DNA of 64,000 nt from Escherichia phage BF15. Every line of letters begins with the position of its first letter. Positions within the stretch are counted from its first letter, which is position 1. Positions 2,247-32,656 of the stretch are shown one piece after another. A program made the position numbers and the translations under genes. The notes beneath the pieces are model-generated. The model saw nothing but the letters and a program-made list of their open reading frames with translations, was not told the origin of the DNA and made no database searches. The stretch is from sequence record MW822007.1; one strand, given 5' to 3'.

Positions 2247-4060
2247 TGGTGTTTAACCCTATGCATGATTTCTTTATTTTTACCGAGATTAAATCCGCGT
2301 TCGTTCGGATTTCCCAAATAACCACATGTTCTTCTTATGGTATTCATCTTTTTAGGATCAGTTTCTCCACAAATAGAACAAACAAATCCGTTTTCAGTAG
2401 GAGTCATTTCATGGGTACTTCCGCATGTAAAACATTTATCTACTGGCATATTAACACCAAAATAATCTAAATGTTGTGCAGCATAATCCCACACGGCCTC
2501 AAGACCTTTCAAGTTATTTTTCATATCAGGAAGTTCAACATAAGAAATGTGACCACCTGTCGCAATGAAATGATACGGCGCTTCACGAGAAATCTTTTCA
2601 AACGGAGTAATATTTTCTTCTACTGAAACATGGAAACTGTTAGTGTACCAACCTTTATCGGTAACATCTTTTACGCTTCCATATTTTTCCGTATCGAGTT
2701 TACAGAAGCGATAACAAAGGTTTTCAGCAGGAGTCGAATATAAACTAAAAGCAAATCCAGTTCTTTCAGTCCACTGTTTAAGATGAGCATTCATTTTAGT
2801 TAAAATTTCCTGTCCAATATCACGACCGACAAGAATATTCAATTCGTGAATACCAATGTATCCTAAAGACACTGAACTTCTACCGTTTTTAAATAACTCA
2901 ATTATGTCGTCATCAGGTTTAAGACGAACCCCGAATGCACCTTCTTGGTAAAGAATAGGAGCAACAGTCGCTTTAACTCCTTTTAAGGAACTAATTCTAC
3001 ACATCAAAGCTTCAAAACATAAATCCATTCGTTCATTAAATAGCTCAACAAATTTCTGTTCATTGAACTGTGTTCCAATATAAGAATCTAACGCGATGCG
3101 AGGAAGATTCAGTGTTACAACACCAAGATTATTACGTCCATCAAGAATTTCATTACCAGTCGAATCTTTCCATACGCTCAAGAAACTGCGGCAACCCATT
3201 GGAGAAACAGGAACAGATGAACCAGTGATAGCTTTATTGTTCTTAGCCGAAATGATGTCAGGATACATCCTTTTGCTTGCACACTCTAGAGCAAGCTGCT
3301 TAATATCATAGTTCGGATCGTCTTTATAAAGATTAACACCCTCTTCAACGAACATAACAAGCTTAGGGAAAATAGGAGTTATTCCATCACGACCAAGACC
3401 TTTAATACGATTTTTCAGAATTGCTTTCTGAATCATTCGTTCAGTCCAGTCAGTTCCCGTACCAAATGTAATTGTTACAAAAGGTGTTTGCCCGTTTGAA
3501 CTAAAGAGAGTATTTACTTCATATTCATAAGCTTGGAATGCATCGTATACGTCTTTTTCTGTTTTAGATTGAGCATAATTCAACGCATCAGCGATTTGCC
3601 ATTTTTCTGCATCCTCAATATGTTTTGCATAGGTGCGTTTAACATAAGGAGAAAGTACTTTATCTACATTCGCAAAAGTCGTTCCGCCGTATTGGTGAGA
3701 AGCAACCTGTGCAGTAATTTGTGCCATAATTGCAGTAGCAACGCCAATTGATTTAGGAGTTTCAATCTGCGCATTACCGAGCTTAAATCCGTTCTCAAGC
3801 ATTCCTTTTAAATCTACTAAACAGCAATTAGTAAATGGAAGAGCAGGGGAATAATCAATATCATGGAAATGAATAATTCCGCTTTCATGCGCTTTCATAA
3901 TAAAAGACGGGACCATATTTTTGGCAATGTGTTTAGACACAATACCAGCCATAAGGTCCCGTTGAGTTGGAAAAACACGAGAATCTTTATTAGCATTCTC
4001 GTTTAAAAGGTCTTTATCAGTTTTATGAATCAATCCTTCAATTTCTTTTTCAATTGTCAT
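2243..4060 (-). CDS. nrdD: anaerobic ribonucleoside-triphosphate reductase, intron-less
   Basis: 605 aa continuous ORF; glycyl-radical enzyme; C-terminal Cys cluster CFTCGS...CSICG. Confidence 0.9.
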   Translation of the reverse strand: MTIEKEIEGLIHKTDKDLLNENANKDSRVFPTQRDLMAGIVSKHIAKNMVPSFIMKAHESGIIHFHDIDYSPALPFTNCCLVDLKGMLENGFKLGNAQIETPKSIGVATAIMAQITAQVASHQYGGTTFANVDKVLSPYVKRTYAKHIEDAEKWQIADALNYAQSKTEKDVYDAFQAYEYEVNTLFSSNGQTPFVTITFGTGTDWTERMIQKAILKNRIKGLGRDGITPIFPKLVMFVEEGVNLYKDDPNYDIKQLALECASKRMYPDIISAKNNKAITGSSVPVSPMGCRSFLSVWKDSTGNEILDGRNNLGVVTLNLPRIALDSYIGTQFNEQKFVELFNERMDLCFEALMCRISSLKGVKATVAPILYQEGAFGVRLKPDDDIIELFKNGRSSVSLGYIGIHELNILVGRDIGQEILTKMNAHLKQWTERTGFAFSLYSTPAENLCYRFCKLDTEKYGSVKDVTDKGWYTNSFHVSVEENITPFEKISREAPYHFIATGGHISYVELPDMKNNLKGLEAVWDYAAQHLDYFGVNMPVDKCFTCGSTHEMTPTENGFVCSICGETDPKKMNTIRRTCGYLGNPNERGFNLGKNKEIMHRVKHQ

Positions 4061-4530
4061 TTTAAACTCTTTCTAAGCTGCTTCTTAAATGAAGCTATTA
4101 ATTGTGTTTTGGTGTCAGATTCATTATATTCAAATCCTCTTTGAAGCATCTCAGCCATCATTTCCTCTTTTCCTAAACGAGAAAATTCCTTTGATTTATC
4201 TCCAACGAAGTTAGGGTGAATATTATTTTGGGTGTAATCGGATTTTAAATAAGTAAGTAAATTTTCTAACCATTCAAGATAATCAACACCTTGTCCCTTT
4301 AAGCCAGAACGATTAAATTTGTGCTTCATTTGACCTTCTGCGGCATTGCATAGATTACAAAGCAATCCACGTACCTTTCCTGCTTTTGGTCCATTTAATT
4401 CATGATCATGGTCGAGGTGATTAGCTTGAACATCAGGATTTAGTTCTCGTTGGCAAATTAAGCATTTACCGTTTTGTGCATCATAAAATTTTTGTTTTTC
4501 TTCTTTATATAATTTGCCAGTCAATAACAT
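4057..4530 (-). CDS. 49: endonuclease VII (Holliday junction resolvase)
   Basis: 157 aa; Zn-binding CLIC...CNLC and HLDHDH motif; sequence matches T4 gp49 as I recall it. Confidence 0.85.
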   Translation of the reverse strand: MLLTGKLYKEEKQKFYDAQNGKCLICQRELNPDVQANHLDHDHELNGPKAGKVRGLLCNLCNAAEGQMKHKFNRSGLKGQGVDYLEWLENLLTYLKSDYTQNNIHPNFVGDKSKEFSRLGKEEMMAEMLQRGFEYNESDTKTQLIASFKKQLRKSLK

Positions 4531-4571
4531 AATAAACCCTTACCTTAAATAGATAAGGGTATTTATTATTT

Positions 4572-5057
4572 TCAAGTATTGTAAAACATTTGATGCAATC
4601 GCTTATATTGCCGAATCATTTGGTCAGAAAAAGAAATTTGAGTTTCAAGCCATTCAATGTATTCTGCGGCAGCTTGCATCAGGTTACCTTCATAGCCATC
4701 GTTATTTTCTTGCGCAGCTAATTTAGCTAATGCGTATGAAATACGTTCACCTTGAAAATCGGCTTTAGGCTTCTGAACAACTTGATTAGTTCGCTCTACA
4801 ACTTCTTCAATTTCGCCATTTTCGACTGATTCAGTATTCCACAAACACCAATACGTAATTGGCTTATCGTAGATGTTAATAATCTTTCCGTCGGAAAGTT
4901 CAATTTCAATAATTCCAGTATCAGGCTCTATATCATCTTCACATTCTTTTGCAAGTTCACGAACTTTAAAGACAGTACCTGCACTAAGTTCCGGCCAGTA
5001 ATTACATAGCCCTGTATCAGCACGATTAATTCTAAACCACTTATCTACTGTAATCAT
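4572..5057 (-). CDS. hypothetical protein in the 49.x/pin position
   Basis: 161 aa ORF between 49 and nrdC; assignment by position only. Confidence 0.35.
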   Translation of the reverse strand: MITVDKWFRINRADTGLCNYWPELSAGTVFKVRELAKECEDDIEPDTGIIEIELSDGKIINIYDKPITYWCLWNTESVENGEIEEVVERTNQVVQKPKADFQGERISYALAKLAAQENNDGYEGNLMQAAAEYIEWLETQISFSDQMIRQYKRLHQMFYNT

Positions 5058-23584: not shown

Positions 23585-24163
23585 TTAGGAATTACGGGCT
23601 GCATTAGCAACGGCGTAAGCGTACTGGACATTAGCGTCTTTAAACGTACCTTTAGAGGTATCTATTTCTGCCTTAAAGCCGCCTTTAGCCATAACATCGG
23701 CAAATTCTTTACGGAAAGCCATTGCATCAAGACCTTTCCATGATGATTTATGCTTGGCAAATTCAAGACCAGCGTAGTTGACAGCCTTAGCTAATTTATT
23801 ATCAATAACCCATTTACCGGCTTTAGGCACAAACTTCGGGCCTTTTTGTTTAGAGAACAGTTTTAAATTCCAGCGACGAAGGTCACTGTCGGCTTTAACA
23901 AAAGCTGCGTCTAAGTTACTAGCAACAACATCTTCAATATGAGCAAATTTAAGTCCGTCAACTTCAATATTTAGATCGTTACGCCAGCGAAGTCCTTCCC
24001 AAGCGAAGGCTTTAAAGTCGGAAGCCTTTGTAGCTAAGTACCGTTCAATAGGAGCTGTTTTAGGGTCAAAGCCGTTTCCCGATCGGTAGGTCCACTCATC
24101 TTTATTAATGCCTTTGGCCTTTACTATAGAAGCTTCGGCAATAAATTCTTGATAGGTTTTCAT
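23585..24163 (-). CDS. ipIII: internal protein (IPIII-like) with capsid targeting sequence
   Basis: MKTYQEFIAE-A leader; 192 aa. Confidence 0.7.
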   Translation of the reverse strand: MKTYQEFIAEASIVKAKGINKDEWTYRSGNGFDPKTAPIERYLATKASDFKAFAWEGLRWRNDLNIEVDGLKFAHIEDVVASNLDAAFVKADSDLRRWNLKLFSKQKGPKFVPKAGKWVIDNKLAKAVNYAGLEFAKHKSSWKGLDAMAFRKEFADVMAKGGFKAEIDTSKGTFKDANVQYAYAVANAARNS

Positions 24164-24224: not shown

Positions 24225-24485
24225 TTAAGCTTTACCGCCAGAAATAATTCCGAAGTTGTTAAAATCATATCCAATATCGTCAACATCTACTTTAGGACTT
24301 GCTACAACATAAGCAATTTCACTACGTTTTGCACAGGTGTTGATTTCTTTACCATCGCCACCTAAGAAAGAATACCCATTACGTTTTAATGAGCCAAAGT
24401 CTTCCGCATCACCAATGAAAGCTTTAACTTTAAATTTAGAACCTTTGGCATCTGCTTCAACGATAAATTCTTGATACATTTTCAT
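24225..24485 (-). CDS. novel internal-protein-like gene with capsid targeting sequence
   Basis: MKMYQEFIVE-A leader; 86 aa, Gly-rich body. Confidence 0.6.
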   Translation of the reverse strand: MKMYQEFIVEADAKGSKFKVKAFIGDAEDFGSLKRNGYSFLGGDGKEINTCAKRSEIAYVVASPKVDVDDIGYDFNNFGIISGGKA

Positions 24486-24654: not shown

Positions 24655-25895
<1,241 letters not shown>

Positions 25896-25914
<19 letters not shown>

Positions 25915-26384
25915 TCAGTGATAAAGCTATTTAAATTTTGGGTATATTTCTTTTCATCATAAATCTTTTGCTGTCTGCGTAAACGCCATGGCATTTCAAT
26001 GAACATACGCCATATTCCTGATAATACTGCTGCTGTAAAAATATTAACAAGTATAGTTAAAAGAATCCAATCTCCTATTCTGTCCATTGGATTTTTTATA
26101 AAAAAGTAAAATACGAATGATGATATAGGAAGACTAATGATATACCACAGAAGAACCTTTTTATCTGTGAACCAATCAGCGTTCGTTAACTTAGCGCGAC
26201 CATTATGAATACACACGAATTTATCGTCTGTTATAGTAGATGGCTTAACTGGTTGATATCCCATTCTAAACTCCCTAATCAACAAATTTTTCATATCTTC
26301 GGAACAGCCATTCCAGTCAACTCTATCAACTGAAATGCCATCGTCCCCATCATCTAAATCATACCAACGAGTTTTTAAAATCAT
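25896..26384 (-). CDS. membrane protein, member of ECRK-tail family
   Basis: two C-terminal TM helices; ends ...SFITECRKLK. Confidence 0.5.
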
Positions 26385-26743
26385 TTGATTTTCCTACAAT
26401 CACTCACAAACTCTTCCATTGATTCTTTTTCAATATAAGACATGTAGTTGTTATATTCTTTTAATTGTATTTTGTAATCCTTTTTTCTTTGCCAATTTAT
26501 TTTAAAATTATCATAATGAAAAAATAGCATGGTACCAAAGAATGAAAATAATGAAATCGCTATAGTATAACGAAGTTCGCTCCAAACCTCTGTTATAATT
26601 GCTGAACTATCGACGTTTAAAATAAAACAGTCAATCATTAGTCCAATAAGACTACCCGCAAGAGCTGCAAATACTGATACGGCAAGAATTAATAGTGCCT
26701 CAGGAAACGAATATTTGACTTTATTTAGTTTTGGCTTTTGCAT
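26381..26743 (-). CDS. small membrane protein, member of ECRK-tail family
   Basis: two TM helices; ends ...EFVSDCRKIK. Confidence 0.5.
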   Translation of the reverse strand: MQKPKLNKVKYSFPEALLILAVSVFAALAGSLIGLMIDCFILNVDSSAIITEVWSELRYTIAISLFSFFGTMLFFHYDNFKINWQRKKDYKIQLKEYNNYMSYIEKESMEEFVSDCRKIK

Positions 26744-27138
26744 CGTGATTCCTTAACAAATTTCATAATTTCGTTAAATTCATACATATCTAGTTTAAGC
26801 TGGTGTTCCTTTTTAATCTTTTTACACTGAGCTTTCCATTCACGTACGCGTTTACGATAATGTCTTCCTTGATACCAGTATCCTACCCAATTTACAGGTA
26901 CCAATAAAAATGGAACTACTAATGGAAGAATTAACGTTGCTCCAAATATTACGCCAGATTCAATATCTGTCATAACGTCTATAACCATTCCAGCAATCAG
27001 TAGAATTACAAATGATACAGCTACCACAGGACCCATTAATACATCGGTAGAAATTATCTGGCGCTTTAGTTCATACTTCAAAGGTTTACTTGGAAGGTAT
27101 AGTGATGGCTTTGACATATTCTCTACATTCCTTAACAA
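26725..27138 (-). CDS. small membrane protein, member of ECRK-tail family
   Basis: two TM helices; ends ...KFVKESRCKSQN; N-terminus overlaps upstream ORF. Confidence 0.45.
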   Translation of the reverse strand: MLRNVENMSKPSLYLPSKPLKYELKRQIISTDVLMGPVVAVSFVILLIAGMVIDVMTDIESGVIFGATLILPLVVPFLLVPVNWVGYWYQGRHYRKRVREWKAQCKKIKKEHQLKLDMYEFNEIMKFVKESRCKSQN

Positions 27139-27694
27139 ATTTTTCTAGTAATAAATCGCTTTCAAAATTAGGATTTTTCACGAATTTATCAAAAAGATCA
27201 TCAATAATAGTCAAAATATTCTTTTTACTAAGAATACGCTTATTTTCATATTCCGTTTCAGAGTCAACTATAAGAGTAAAGAAATATTTCTTTCCCTGAA
27301 ATTTTACCGTAGTATCAATATAAAATAAATTTGACTTTTGTAAATTACGTTTAAACCATGCGTCACTTAAACTATAAATGCCAAGATAATCATAATCGTC
27401 GTTTAAATAACAAACTGTCCATTCAGGAGAAATGAAATCAGTAAATTCAACATCAAAATCACATGTCAATGAATGAATTGATTCAATACTGTTAATAAGT
27501 ATTCCAGGACGTATTAAAGACTTTTTACCTCTATAAAATCTTCCAGAAAGACTTTCGTCAGTTTCATACGAAGACCCCCAATAGTAATTACGTCCTTCTG
27601 CCATACGTTTAAGAGCATTCAGTAATTGGTCTGGAACATCAACCTGTCTTTGGAACTCTTCAAACATTGAATTGAAATCATTTTGCATTCTCAT
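27086..27694 (-). CDS. hypothetical protein sharing the KFVKECR tail motif
   Basis: 202 aa, no TM; C-terminus ...EKFVKECREYVK. Confidence 0.45.
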   Translation of the reverse strand: MRMQNDFNSMFEEFQRQVDVPDQLLNALKRMAEGRNYYWGSSYETDESLSGRFYRGKKSLIRPGILINSIESIHSLTCDFDVEFTDFISPEWTVCYLNDDYDYLGIYSLSDAWFKRNLQKSNLFYIDTTVKFQGKKYFFTLIVDSETEYENKRILSKKNILTIIDDLFDKFVKNPNFESDLLLEKFVKECREYVKAITIPSK

Positions 27695-27735
27695 TCCTAT
27701 TTACTCCAAGTAATAGGGGCCGAAGCCCCTTATCA

Positions 27736-28329
27736 TTATTTCAGAGAATTGATGTATTCCTGAACATCGGCAGAGGTAGTTTCAACCCCGGAAATATTAC
27801 CGTTAAAGGTTTCAACTCGAGCAAGAGTATCTTCAATATCAACCTTAGTTAGCGCTGCGATTTCAACTACATCATCAGCAGTACTAATTCCAAGGGCATT
27901 TGCCGCACGAGTTTCACGGATATATTCCAATTTAACTGCAAGTTCTTGGCGAGCATCATCTAACTCAACTACTTTCTTGGCGATTTCAATTCGCATTTCA
28001 GCATAACCATCAGCTTTAGTAGTCAACTGCTCAGCTGTTCGACGATATAGTAAACCGAGTTTAGCATGCATTGTTACATCTTGACCTTCGGAAAGAAGTC
28101 TGCGAATTTCACGCTCTTTTGATTCGGCTTGTCGATTCTTTTCGATAACAAGTTCACGAATACGTTTTTCTTCATTAATAGATTTAACAGAAGCAGTTTT
28201 TAGGTCTTTAATTTTATCAAGTAATTTTGCTGCTGCAGCAGTATACTGTTCTTCAACAGATAAATTTTTAGCCATAGCAGAACCAAGTTTAGTGCGAATA
28301 AACTCAACAATTTTCTTCAGTGTGTTCAT
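27736..28329 (-). CDS. long coiled-coil protein with weak PspA/IM30-like character
   Basis: 197 aa, predicted almost entirely helical, heptad pattern. Confidence 0.4.
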
Positions 28330-28385
28330 AGTATTTCCTTAGGTTGATACAATTAGATAATATCACGTTTTAATAAATTGTAAAC

Positions 28386-28721
28386 TTATTCTTCGTCTAG
28401 CTCATCGATAAAGACGTCAATGGCCTCGATAACGGCATCATTGATAGCCAATAAAGTAAAATCATCGTCAGTGTCTTTAGAAGATTCTAAAGCATTGATA
28501 TATGCTTTGTTAGCAAGTTCCCAAGCCTTTTTAAAATAAGGAGCTTCATCATCAGGGCCAACGAAACGTACACCTTCAAAGATACGGTTAGCATAATCCA
28601 ATACCCACTGTACAGGCATGCTTTGAGAACGTTCGTTAAACTCTTTAAATTCCTTAGATTCAAAAAGCTCTTCGGGATAATAATTTCGATTACAAAAAGC
28701 TTTACTAAAGTTACGTTTCAT
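28386..28721 (-). CDS. hypothetical acidic protein
   Basis: 111 aa, acidic C-terminus. Confidence 0.45.
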   Translation of the reverse strand: MKRNFSKAFCNRNYYPEELFESKEFKEFNERSQSMPVQWVLDYANRIFEGVRFVGPDDEAPYFKKAWELANKAYINALESSKDTDDDFTLLAINDAVIEAIDVFIDELDEE

Positions 28722-28776
28722 AATGTTCTCCTCAAATTATGGGCTCATAATATCTCAATCATGAGCCCATGTAAAC

Positions 28777-29052
28777 TTATTTCATATTATTGAAATATTC
28801 TTCTGCGATTTCGTCGTTATCGTGGTAAACTTTAGAAGACAGTTTAACATAACCTTCAGCAGTGAACATGTTAATCACAACCTTTACAGTATACCACTGA
28901 CCATCTTCATTACCCATTACTGCGTAAGTTTCAAACATCGGATGGTCAGGACCGATAACTTTAATATCATTCACCGTACGACCGAAATCTTCTGAAACAC
29001 ATTTCAGAAAGAAGTTGAACAGTTCGCCGTAATTATCCATTTCGTTCTCCAA
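28777..29052 (-). CDS. hypothetical protein
   Basis: 91 aa; early promoter immediately upstream. Confidence 0.45.
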   Translation of the reverse strand: MENEMDNYGELFNFFLKCVSEDFGRTVNDIKVIGPDHPMFETYAVMGNEDGQWYTVKVVINMFTAEGYVKLSSKVYHDNDEIAEEYFNNMK

Positions 29053-29082
29053 GTTGTTTTCTGTATCAGTAGTTGATATTGA

Positions 29083-29113
29083 TATAGTACCATGGAAGAA
29101 CAGGGATGTAAAC
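29083..29113 (-). promoter_or_regulatory. early promoter (GTTTAC, 15 nt, TGGTACTAT)
   Basis: A/T-rich upstream element. Confidence 0.5.
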
Positions 29114-29243: not shown

Positions 29244-29275
29244 TACTAAAAAGCCCCAACCTTTCGGCTGGGGCT
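29244..29275 (-). terminator. rho-independent terminator at the end of the tRNA/stable-RNA transcription unit
   Basis: GCCCCAGCC-GAAA-GGTTGGGGC then TTTTTAG on minus strand. Confidence 0.5.
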
Positions 29276-29591: not shown

Positions 29592-29668
<77 letters not shown>

Positions 29669-29671
29669 TAA

Positions 29672-30337
29672 TTAAAATTTCATTTTTCGACCTTTAAACC
29701 ATCCTTCTGGAATTGGATCAGTTTTCTTAATACGTTTAGAAACTTTTTCATCTAATGAATGAATCCACATCATACCAAATTGGGAATTCTTTTCACCTTG
29801 TTGGTGTTTATTTCTGGCGTGAGATTCTTTCATTTTATTAATAGTTTCAGGAGTATGAGTCTTACCCAAGAAAGATTTAGTATTTAAAAATTTCTCTCTA
29901 TACTTAGGATTATCCCAAAGCTGTTTAAACCTTTCTGAACCCATTTTACGATATTTTTCTTTAAGGTCTGGGTCGTTCTCAAATCTGGTTTTAAAAGCGG
30001 CAGCTCCTTTTAAGGAAGCTTCTTTCTTTTTATCCAAATATTCTTTAGTGTTTAAATGGTCCCAACCACCTTCACCACCTAATTTCAAATTATAAACATC
30101 AGGGCGCTTTAAAAACTCTTCAGTCACAATATTCTTTTCTGACTCAAACATAGAGGTTTTATCGTCAAAGAACTCTAATATTTCTTTAGAAAAATTTTCT
30201 ATACCATACTTATCTTGGGCTCTTTTTAATAATTTACCAGAACCCATATATCCATCATCTAAATTTTCGGTAGAATGAGCGCCTATATAGATTTTATTAT
30301 TAATTTTATTTGTTATTTTATAAATGTAATGGAACAT
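29672..30337 (-). CDS. segB: GIY-YIG homing endonuclease (SegB-like) inside the tRNA cluster
   Basis: YIYKITNKINNKIYIGAHS GIY-YIG motif; GGEGG; same position as T4 segB. Confidence 0.75.
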   Translation of the reverse strand: MFHYIYKITNKINNKIYIGAHSTENLDDGYMGSGKLLKRAQDKYGIENFSKEILEFFDDKTSMFESEKNIVTEEFLKRPDVYNLKLGGEGGWDHLNTKEYLDKKKEASLKGAAAFKTRFENDPDLKEKYRKMGSERFKQLWDNPKYREKFLNTKSFLGKTHTPETINKMKESHARNKHQQGEKNSQFGMMWIHSLDEKVSKRIKKTDPIPEGWFKGRKMKF

Positions 30338-30378
30338 AAATATCTCCTATTTCTAAGAGTATTTATGTTCTCAAAATA

Positions 30379-30450
30379 TGGCCCTGGGTGGAATTGAACC
30401 ACCATCTGGCGATTATGAGTCGCTTGCTTGAACCTTCCAGCTACAGGGCC
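30379..30450 (-). tRNA. trnI: tRNA-Ile (anticodon CAT, lysidine-type)
   Basis: acceptor GGCCCTG/CAGGGCC; anticodon loop CTCATAA; T-arm GGTGGTTCAATTCCACC. Confidence 0.7.
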
Positions 30451-30456
30451 TTGATA

Positions 30457-30529
30457 TGCTGATTGACGGAATCGAACCGCCGACGTCCTCATTACAAGTG
30501 AGTTGCTCTACCTACTGAGCTAAATCAGC
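30457..30529 (-). tRNA. trnT: tRNA-Thr (anticodon TGT)
   Basis: GCTGATTTAGCTCAGTAGG...; anticodon loop CTTGTAA; GGTTCGATTCC. Confidence 0.8.
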
Positions 30530-30536
30530 GAAATTA

Positions 30537-30623
30537 CGGAGGCGATAGGATTTGAACCTATGAGTCGCCGGAGCGACTGCCGGTTTTCAAGACCGGTGCA
30601 TTAAACCACTCTGCCACGCCTCC
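30537..30623 (-). tRNA. trnS: tRNA-Ser (anticodon TGA), long variable arm
   Basis: GGAGGCGTGGCAGAGTGG...; anticodon loop CTTGAAA; 87 nt. Confidence 0.8.
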
Positions 30624-30625
30624 AG

Positions 30626-30699
30626 TCTCCATACAAGGATTTGAACCTTGGACCTCCTGATCCCAAATCAGGCGCTCTACCAAACTGAGCTACACGGAG
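30626..30699 (-). tRNA. trnP: tRNA-Pro (anticodon TGG)
   Basis: TAGCTCAGTTTGGTAGAGC D-arm; anticodon loop TTTGGGA; GGTTCAAATCC. Confidence 0.8.
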
Positions 30700-30711
30700 T
30701 AAATTAAATTT

Positions 30712-30783
<72 letters not shown>

Positions 30784-30789
30784 AAACTT

Positions 30790-30876
30790 TGGTACGAGAA
30801 GTGGGACTCGAACCCACAAGGAAATCATTCCGCAGCATTTTAAGTGCTGTGCCTTTACCAATTTGACCATTCTCGC
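30790..30876 (-). tRNA. trnL: tRNA-Leu (anticodon TAA), CCA encoded
   Basis: GCGAGAATGGTCAAATTGGTAAAGG...; anticodon loop CTTAAAA; GGTTCGAGTCC; 87 nt. Confidence 0.8.
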
Positions 30877-30877
30877 G

Positions 30878-30950
30878 CTGGGAATAAAGGACTCGAACCT
30901 TTGCATCCTGGAATCAAAATCCAGTGCCTTACCAACTTGGCTAATTCCCA
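30878..30950 (-). tRNA. trnQ: tRNA-Gln (anticodon TTG)
   Basis: TGGGAATTAGCCAAGTTGG...; anticodon loop TTTTGAT; 1-nt spacer to tRNA-Leu (dimeric precursor). Confidence 0.8.
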
Positions 30951-31978: not shown

Positions 31979-32287
31979 CTATTTTATTCCGCGTGATGCA
32001 ATTGTATTCTGTCGTTTAGCACCAGTTTGTTTAAAGTCATGATTGTCGATTTGATCGGTACGAGCAACTCCGAATGATGATTTAATCTTAGCTTTAGATC
32101 CTTTAGTTATAGAAATAAACATCTCGGAAGACCCTTTCTTAAAGTCCGATGCGGATACTTCAACGCCGTTCTTAGCAAGTGACCTCAGAATTGCCTCCGC
32201 GTACTCATCATCAAGACTCGCTTGAGTATTAATAACGAATGTCTTTGGTGCAGCCGCTTCATTGATAAATTCTTTGAAAGTTTTCAT
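31979..32287 (-). CDS. internal-protein-like gene (ipI locus) with capsid targeting sequence
   Basis: MKTFKEFINE-A leader; 102 aa basic body. Confidence 0.6.
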   Translation of the reverse strand: MKTFKEFINEAAAPKTFVINTQASLDDEYAEAILRSLAKNGVEVSASDFKKGSSEMFISITKGSKAKIKSSFGVARTDQIDNHDFKQTGAKRQNTIASRGIK

Positions 32288-32347: not shown

Positions 32348-32620
32348 TCATTTTAAATAAATTGCGTATTTTTTATAACCCGCTGACTCATGACGAAGAC
32401 CCTTATCATTAGCAAAACGCTCAATGTTGTTAATTTGATTCTGGTCAAGTTCAGAGATGTCAAACACGAAAAAGTTACGTTTGTTACCAACTGTTACATA
32501 GTCAGTTAAATCAATATCATATAGGTAATTGATGTCAGCAATCAAAGTCTTGACAGCTTTGCTAATTTTTACTTTTTCGTTAAAAGCAGCTTCATTGATA
32601 AATTCTTTAAATGTTTTCAT
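32348..32620 (-). CDS. internal-protein-like gene (ipI locus) with capsid targeting sequence
   Basis: ATG with GGAG SD gives the MKTFKEFINE-A leader; the track ORF starts at an upstream TTG. Confidence 0.6.
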   Translation of the reverse strand: MKTFKEFINEAAFNEKVKISKAVKTLIADINYLYDIDLTDYVTVGNKRNFFVFDISELDQNQINNIERFANDKGLRHESAGYKKYAIYLK

Positions 32621-32656
32621 TTTATTCTCCAATCACTCATTTGTTTTGATAGGGTA

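Follow-up and report, generated by a model that had tools for sequence, protein, structure and literature searches.

PspA and Vipp1 are bacterial ESCRT-III proteins that keep energized membranes intact. PspA is brought to the membrane by the membrane sensors PspB and PspC, with which it works, and acts as an inhibitor of the sigma-54 activator PspF; LiaH is recruited by LiaI. [quoted passage not shown] A relationship between these proteins and gene e.6 of T4-type phages has surfaced twice. The e.6 homologue gp163 of Klebsiella phage Metamorpho gave an HHpred match of 99.9% to PspA (4WHE) (PMC7862958), and phrog_1203 was called a PspA homologue, with a speculated role against abortive infection (PMC9409062). 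The PspA homology of e.6 is already present in these two papers (2021 and 2022) as brief remarks, so that its finding here is modestly novel; this analysis contributes independent confirmation, a structural anatomy, and explicit hypotheses.

The window, a 64,000-nucleotide stretch of phage DNA, carries at 27736-28329 gene e.6 of a Tequatrovirus (T4-type phage), in a neighborhood that is unmistakably T4-type. Its gene order is that of T4 (e, nudE, e.2-e.8, tRNAs), with the tRNA cluster beyond e.8 accompanied by the GIY-YIG endonuclease segB, and a megablast search with positions 25400-29100 returned 687 phage records, headed by Tequatrovirus genomes at 94-96% identity. The 197-residue reading frame singled out in the initial annotation is real (Table 1): its product is 98% identical to T4 e.6 (NP_049742; 193/197 residues), and the ORF listing contains no overlapping reading frame of at least 40 amino acids on the opposite, plus strand. 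The annotated records of T6, Shigella phage vB_SsoM_113, and T4 name the same gene e.6 and describe a "conserved hypothetical protein." Charged residues make up 34% of the protein, which is devoid of Pro, Cys, and Trp. Comparison with PHROGs assigns it to phrog_1203 (E 1.9e-87), which is annotated "unknown function"; the labels given to the family across PHROGs, GenBank, and UniRef, namely unknown, "host specificity protein," or "tail completion protein," are corrected by the assignment developed below.

Table 1. Coordinates of e.6, its neighbors, its predicted structural elements, and its expression signals in the window.
Feature	Position	Strand	Basis
e.6 CDS, 197 aa, ATG to TAA, 594 nt including stop	27736..28329	minus	ORF listing and homology
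Predicted N-terminal amphipathic cationic helix, residues 2-22, alpha0 counterpart	28264..28326	minus	both models
Predicted hairpin first arm, alpha1, residues 25-80	28090..28257	minus	pLDDT 89-98 (model 2); period 3.5, z 2.7
Predicted hairpin second arm, joined alpha2/alpha3, residues 86-145	27895..28074	minus	both models
Conserved C-terminal region, residues 146-197, three short predicted helices, ARVETF, tail Y192-x-x-SLK	27739..27894	minus	conservation and hhalign
Promoter-like site, sigma-70/T4-early type: (G)TTTACA, 16 nt, TATTAT, upstream TG	28357..28384	minus	consensus scan, 10/12 matches
Shine-Dalgarno TAAGGAAA, 4 nt ahead of e.6 ATG	28334..28341	minus	sequence read
Intercistronic hairpin GGGGC-UUCG-GCCCC, between e.6 and e.5	27715..27730	minus	sequence scan and comparison
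e.5, soluble, no predicted transmembrane segment	27086-27694	minus	ORF and hydropathy
e.4, predicted transmembrane segments	26725-27117	minus	ORF and hydropathy
e.3, predicted transmembrane segments	26381-26743	minus	ORF and hydropathy
e.2, predicted transmembrane segments	25896-26384	minus	ORF and hydropathy
T4 lysozyme, gene e	24933-25421		ORF listing

Homologues of e.6 are found by tblastn in 1106 phage records, nearly all of which annotate them as hypothetical. Comparison of the window, T4, T6, and phage 113 gives a dN/dS of 0.02-0.07, and e.6 is a conserved protein-coding gene under strong purifying selection; among close relatives, residues K5, F10, I11, and K14 vary little or not at all. 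Exhaustive searching of 1.84 billion representative proteins with HMMER recovered only 45 e.6 clusters, the full-length ones all encoding ~195-209 residues at identities as low as ~17%. The distant homologues also reside in T4-like genomes, near uvsX, the gene 41 helicase, and nrdD. A third, word-indexed search with the diverse profile A3, described below, added no new relatives and no bacterial PspA.

The signals surrounding the gene suggest how it might be expressed. A promoter-like site begins directly past the stop codon of e.7, and the Shine-Dalgarno sequence ahead of the ATG makes a strong ribosome-binding site; together they are consistent with early expression. The supplement of a T4 multi-omics paper places T4 e.6 in the class "early RNA, middle protein," and the protein was therefore detected, in this case by mass spectrometry (PMC9697503). 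The hairpin reported to follow the stop codon is also present, starting six nucleotides past it, and its sequence is identical in T4, T6, and phage 113. Some records annotate this element as a terminator, an assignment rejected here: the coding strand carries no U-run after the hairpin, which is therefore not a canonical intrinsic terminator, and the 56-nt fold around it is not significantly more stable than its shuffles (z -1.36). It is nonetheless a real, conserved small hairpin, treated here as a stable intercistronic element. C(UUCG)G hairpins were reportedly first described by Tuerk et al. in 1988, in T4 intercistronic regions.

Searches restricted to e.6 and its close relatives reveal nothing of PspA. 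With the window protein alone, searches of Pfam and NCBIfam and phmmer against the PDB gave no PspA match, only weak coiled-coil noise, and a Pfam scan gave no match to PF04012 (PspA_IM30) at E values up to 1. A match to TIGR03495 (Rz-like LysB) at E 0.65 was dismissed as noise. A profile of 33 close homologues of at least 47% identity (A1) detected Vipp1 in the PDB at sub-threshold level by hmmsearch (E 1.8-4.4), and hhalign failed to link it to enterobacterial PspA; a Pfam scan of the same 33 relatives returned assorted coiled-coil families and no PF04012. Shallow searches by themselves thus lead to generic coiled-coil matches, and the PspA/Vipp1 signal emerged only with the addition of relatives at 17-40% identity.

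Two deeper alignments carry that signal. A3 comprises 38 diverse sequences, including the relatives at 17-40% identity obtained from the exhaustive HMMER search above, and A5 comprises the distant e.6 branch alone (13 sequences). Against 177,635 distinct PDB sequences, A3 places Vipp1 at ranks 1-4 (E 9.8e-5 to 5.4e-4), with residues 1-146 of e.6 aligned to residues 1-147 of Vipp1, and eight of its nine top matches are Vipp1 or PspA entries. With A5, Vipp1 accounts for eight matches (E 2.4e-5 to 1.7e-4), and E. coli PspA (4WHE) is matched at an E of 3.9e-3. In a Pfam scan of the A3 members, PF04012 is the family matched by the largest number of them. P0187 (39.0 bits) and P0186 (35.1 bits) exceed its gathering cut-off of 33.9 bits, in alignments that pair protein residues 6-146 with model positions 2-143, and P0188 and P0189 score ~22 bits, under the cut-off. 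The T4-type e.6 profile in turn matches P0187 and P0186 over their full length (E 3.5e-20 and 1.3e-21, respectively). The connection between e.6 and PF04012 is transitive, because these two relatives pass the threshold and the window protein and its close relatives do not.

Direct profile-profile comparison leads to the same family. Alignment of A3 by hhalign with an enterobacterial PspA alignment, the query sequence of which was confirmed to be 100% identical to E. coli PspA, yields a score of 34.1 (E 1.2e-4) over 168 columns, pairing residues 1-176 with 1-171 and the ARVETF motif of e.6 with ARFESF of PspA; A5 gives a probability of 80% and an E of 1.4e-5. Controls for coiled-coil bias fall well below the real score, with 13.05 for a reversed PspA alignment, which retains composition and periodicity, and at most 16.5 for 20 column shuffles. 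In a Foldseek search of the PDB with the e.6 model, Vipp1 takes the first eight places (probability 0.99-1.0), and six CdvB2 chains appear further down among the top 16; the comparison is itself marginal (E-values of 2e-3 and weaker, low TM-scores). The seventh-ranked Foldseek match in BFVD is a phage protein named "PspA/IM30 family protein." Profile-detectable homology to the family is collinear over alpha0 and the hairpin and, as judged from the alignments, extends from residue 1 of e.6 to residue ~176. The combined evidence supports the placement of e.6 in the PspA/IM30/Vipp1 family, which forms the bacterial branch of the ESCRT-III superfamily, as a member that is strongly diverged and shortened. 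The loose resemblance to PspA/Vipp1 proposed in the initial annotation is thereby borne out, with the qualification that the profile searches suggested as a check find generic coiled coils when shallow and specific PspA/Vipp1 matches when deep.

Structure prediction provides insight into how much of the family architecture e.6 retains. Two AlphaFold2 models, one built from 33 close homologues (pLDDT 76.9) and the other from 38 diverse ones (pLDDT 83.1, pTM 0.66), both contain six helices, at residues 2-22, 25-80, 86-145, 151-160, 165/166-170/174, and 186-196, in agreement with the earlier description of an almost entirely helical protein. The predicted fold consists of an alpha0, a hairpin, and short helices, and Vipp1 heads its structural matches. 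The first helix aligns to residues 1-22 of both PspA (hhalign) and Vipp1 (HMMER) and has a hydrophobic moment of 0.45, against 0.49 in E. coli PspA and 0.61 in Vipp1, and a net charge of +4. It thus qualifies as an alpha0 by amphipathicity and charge, properties of the sequence from which membrane binding is predicted. The predicted hairpin spans residues 25-145, against 24-142 in PspA/Vipp1, and the tip loop, SEGQDV (residues 80-85), contains a Gly common to e.6 and Vipp1. Hydropathy over residues 25-145 has a top period of 3.5 (z 2.5, reached by 25 of 1000 shuffles). The heptad periodicity claimed for the protein is just moderately confirmed, because helix 25-80 supplies the signal, and helix 86-145 on its own does not rise above chance.

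The C-terminal region departs most from the family layout. It is modeled at lower confidence (pLDDT 49-85 in model 2) and is aligned by hhalign to PspA residues 145-171; the helix breaks after ARVETF, and the conserved tail follows. Only 52 residues lie beyond the hairpin, against ~78 in PspA, a difference of ~25. Because this region is short and its model of low confidence, e.6 may lack the contact between alpha5 and the hairpin through which PspA/Vipp1/ESCRT-III polymers are built.

The gene is transcribed ahead of e.5, and the membrane proteins e.4, e.3, and e.2 come next. The initial annotation had e.6 adjoining the membrane proteins directly; these do follow, but behind e.5, a non-membrane protein that is the immediate downstream neighbor. 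The "ECRK tails" of the neighboring genes coincide with ribosome-binding sites of overlapping downstream genes, and the shared tail is largely explained by them. Pfam identifies no PspB-, PspC-, or PspF-type partners in e.2-e.8, and a PADLOC scan of the same genes produced no matches.

T4 infection shuts off host gene expression. Classical T4 deletion mutants reportedly indicate that the e.6 region is dispensable in the laboratory, which counts against the function proposed below. The host psp operon is induced weakly or partially by T4 (PMC12795941). Host shut-off combined with weak psp induction would leave a gap that a phage-borne PspA copy would fill. Experiments on e.6 were not found in the literature searches, which yielded the two passing homology remarks and one omics table. 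We consider it somewhat probable that e.6, as a diverged and shortened PspA/Vipp1 member made early, stabilizes the inner membrane, a function that we infer from its family. In this proposal, e.6 would appear in the first minutes of infection, during the shut-off of host gene expression, and would bind the inner membrane via helix alpha0. Assembly there, alone or with host PspA, would limit proton leakage and preserve the proton-motive force, so that the membrane would stay energized during DNA injection and superinfection, while phage membrane proteins are inserted, and for the long time that passes until holin-triggered lysis.

Several other explanations compete with a membrane-stabilizing e.6. 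The most skeptical of them, that e.6 is a generic coiled coil that matches PspA/Vipp1 by virtue of shared composition and heptad pattern, is very improbable. The 177,635 PDB sequences include many coiled coils, yet the top matches of two independent profiles, A3 and A5, are almost all Vipp1/PspA, in alignments that start at residue 1 and span ~145 residues; reversal of the PspA alignment reduces the score from 34 to 13; two relatives, P0187 and P0186, lie above Pfam's curated PF04012 threshold; and motifs recur at equivalent positions (the alpha0 pattern, the hairpin-tip Gly, and ARVETF/ARFESF). A relationship to PspA could instead serve deception. As a look-alike decoy or inhibitor, e.6 would act on host PspA polymers by capping or poisoning them, keep the psp regulon off by occupying PspF, or disturb PspA-based immunity, for example a CBASS cyclase conjugated to PspA. 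A protein with the hairpin and alpha0 and a short C-terminal region may bind PspA partners without forming normal polymers, and a truncated host PspA behaved like a gain-of-function allele in Klebsiella (PMC12234005). A Bacillus CBASS cyclase is kept inactive through conjugation to PspA (PMC11153139), and the weakness of psp induction by T4 (PMC12795941) would also fit. That induction, however, is already accounted for by the general T4 shut-off of host transcription, and the low identity of e.6 to E. coli PspA (~13%), together with profiles that lie nearer to cyanobacterial Vipp1 than to host PspA, speaks against the recent capture of a mimic adapted to host partners. We regard a decoy as quite unlikely.

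The gene neighborhood raises another alternative, in which e.6 is the soluble effector of a phage Psp/Lia-like module, recruited to the membrane by e.4, e.3, and e.2, possibly through e.5, for a phage-specific task such as control of lysis timing or membrane reshaping. Proteus phage phiP4-3, with an e.6 31% identical to that of the window, keeps the order e.6, an e.5-sized protein, membrane proteins, the nudix hydrolase (nudE), and the endolysin (e). Two distant metagenomic T4-like phages have, immediately behind the PspA-like gene, a gene for a protein anchored in the membrane at its N terminus, and in Shigella phage vB_SsoM_113 e.5 is fused to the membrane protein e.4. Against these observations, the downstream proteins of distant e.6 homologues have no detectable similarity to e.5, e.4, e.3, or e.2, and no predicted membrane protein lies directly downstream of the e.6 homologue in Aeromonas phage ZHF, RB43, or locus L010. 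PspB/PspC matches are absent from the Pfam results, the "ECRK" tail is accounted for by overlapping ribosome-binding sites, and e.6 has its own promoter-like site, with a hairpin standing between it and e.5. Small membrane proteins abound in T4 genomes, so the adjacency could be due to chance. A module of this kind is rather unlikely. The candidacy of any neighbor as a conserved partner gene for e.6 was rejected on the dissimilarity of the downstream proteins; because of that dissimilarity and the phages that have no membrane protein at this position, a functional link between e.6 and the membrane-protein cluster is rated as no more than possible.

The presence in >1000 sequenced T4-type phages of a diverged PspA copy, expressed early and strongly conserved, suggests active management of the host inner membrane by lytic phages during the shut-off of host stress responses. 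A bolder extension, to which we assign a low probability, is that T4-type phages carry a minimal ESCRT-III-type membrane machine that reseals lesions and counters depolarizing defenses, or that disables PspA-linked immunity. With equally little confidence, we envisage that e.6 would polymerize early on the inner membrane, perhaps brought there by the small membrane proteins encoded next to it; it is doubtful in the same degree whether lesions left by injection or superinfection would thereby be resealed or, alternatively, host PspA would be co-polymerized or capped. If such a machine exists, a bacterial ESCRT-III homologue would have become a viral counter-defense or membrane-repair factor. 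T4 is the best-developed phage genetic system, which makes the idea of membrane management by lytic phages directly testable.

The comparison of e.6 with known systems delimits where it belongs. Toward archaeal and eukaryotic ESCRT-III proteins (CdvB2, Snf7, CHMP1B, and IST1) there is no detectable sequence link, no Vps4/MIM-type elements were noticed in e.6, and the structural similarity, the Vipp1 matches aside, does not exceed that to unrelated helical hairpins. LiaH-LiaI of Bacillus and the PspA-PspB/C pairs share with e.6 the adjoining of a PspA-type gene and small membrane-protein genes, but LiaI, PspB, and PspC have no homology to e.2-e.5, and some e.6-bearing phages lack the adjacency. 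E. coli PspA (4WHE; PF04012) is of similar size (222 residues, 197 in e.6) and, like e.6, begins with an amphipathic helix and continues into a helical hairpin at ~25-145; it differs in its ~13% identity to e.6, in the failure of e.6 itself to match the Pfam model, and in a C-terminal region that is ~25 residues shorter in e.6. The psp genes are under sigma-54/PspF control, whereas e.6 is phage-encoded and lies behind a promoter-like site of the sigma-70/T4-early type. This site and the lack of PspB/PspC and PspF partners, which define the enterobacterial Psp system (pspF-pspABCDE), are the reasons that e.6 is not assigned to the Psp operon system. A phage-borne structural counterpart exists in the PspA/IM30 family protein of Acinetobacter phage vB_AbaM_ME3 (229 residues; Foldseek E 0.023, probability 0.99), a protein of canonical length that is caught by standard annotation, in contrast to the separate, more diverged e.6 family of ~200 residues, which is still labeled hypothetical. 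The best match to e.6, by both sequence profile and Foldseek, is cyanobacterial Vipp1/IM30 (sll0617; 7O3W, 6ZVR, and 8QFV). Its C-terminal extension (chains of 258-277 residues) has no counterpart in e.6, nor does e.6 share its thylakoid link, but the two have the same alpha0 and hairpin register, and the RIFRxxEANVN-like alpha0 motif of the distant e.6 relatives is close to RVVRANLND of Vipp1.

Downstream of e.6, which encodes a PspA/Vipp1-like protein, lies a series of overlapping genes. The initial annotation had seen an "ECRK" C-terminal motif on the membrane proteins beside e.6. At the 3′ ends of e.5, e.4, e.3 and e.2, the bases that encode such tails fall where the following gene, which overlaps, has its ribosome-binding site and start codon. 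The tail of e.3 reads GAT TGT AGG AAA ATC AAA TGA and that of e.2 GAA TGC AGG AAA TTA AAA TGA; each contains AGGAAA followed by an ATG that shares bases with the stop codon. The tails of e.5 and e.4 both carry TTTGTTAAGGAAT and then ATG. Translational-coupling signals may thus account for most of the ECRK motif, which would then be a side-effect at the protein level. At the e.2 stop, the overlapping ATG (ATGA, 25896-25899, preceded by AGGAAA) would provide an alternative start for nudE, with the protein beginning MKTLSAG, whereas the longest nudE ORF begins at 25914 (MQEIKMKT...). Both forms are in use in existing annotations, the MKTLSAG start in T6 and Shigella phage vB_SsoM_113 and the longer form in T4.

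The overlap of e.5 and e.4 in different frames is common to the window, T4 and T6. In vB_SsoM_113, by contrast, the two correspond to a single 324-aa ORF (L001, the locus from that phage, 3825-4799), in which a soluble domain is joined to a membrane domain. This difference could reflect a simple indel, or it could be a hint of frameshifting.

Upstream, a GTTTACA −35 box directly follows the stop codons of both e.7 and e.8, and thus e.6 and e.7 each appear, from these promoter-like sites, to have their own promoter. A strong terminator-like hairpin separates e.8 from the tRNA/small-RNA region.

Feature coordinates in the window
Feature	Position	Strand	Description
Five ORFs with near-identical N-terminal sequences	23585-24163, 24225-24485, 24655-24951, 31979-32287, 32348-32632	minus	limits as in the ORF listing
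3′ ends of e.5, e.4, e.3, e.2	25896-27140	minus	sequence read
e.5 + e.4	26725-27694		two overlapping ORFs, different frames
Promoter-like site, T4-early-type	28357-28384	minus	GTTTACA directly after e.7 stop
Promoter-like site, T4-early-type	28747-28775	minus	GTTTACA directly after e.8 stop
Terminator-like hairpin	29252-29275	minus	10-bp stem, 7 GC pairs, GAAA loop, then TTTTT
Eight tRNA genes	29592-30950		Arg, Met, Thr, Ser, Pro, Gly, Leu, Gln
segB, GIY-YIG homing endonuclease	29672-30337		inserted between tRNA-Arg and remaining tRNAs

Database entries for e.6 homologues present problems of their own. The gene in Escherichia phage RB43 (L011, the RB43 locus, 4001-4447) is annotated at only 97 aa, and the tblastn match to RB43 covers query residues 52-197; the RB43 gene may be disrupted or mis-called. 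Some homologues are named "host specificity protein" or "tail completion protein" (relatives P0003, P0034 and P0037; database records H27, H33 and H49; and A0A5Q2F7S5 in BFVD, a library of predicted viral protein structures). Neither the sequence nor the predicted fold gives grounds for either name, and both look like misannotations that have spread between records.

The placement of segB between tRNA-Arg and the other tRNA genes is the arrangement of T4 and T6. ARAGORN assigns the second tRNA of the window as Met (anticodon CAT), whereas the T4 annotation has tRNA-Ile at that position. Flanking these regions, the ORFs with near-identical N-terminal sequences, among which MKTFKEFINEAA occurs twice, form a set that appears expanded and variable in the window; two of the five are listed with a TTG start lying a few codons ahead of that sequence. 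The shared N-terminal sequence resembles the capsid-targeting sequence of the T4 internal proteins IpI, IpII and IpIII.
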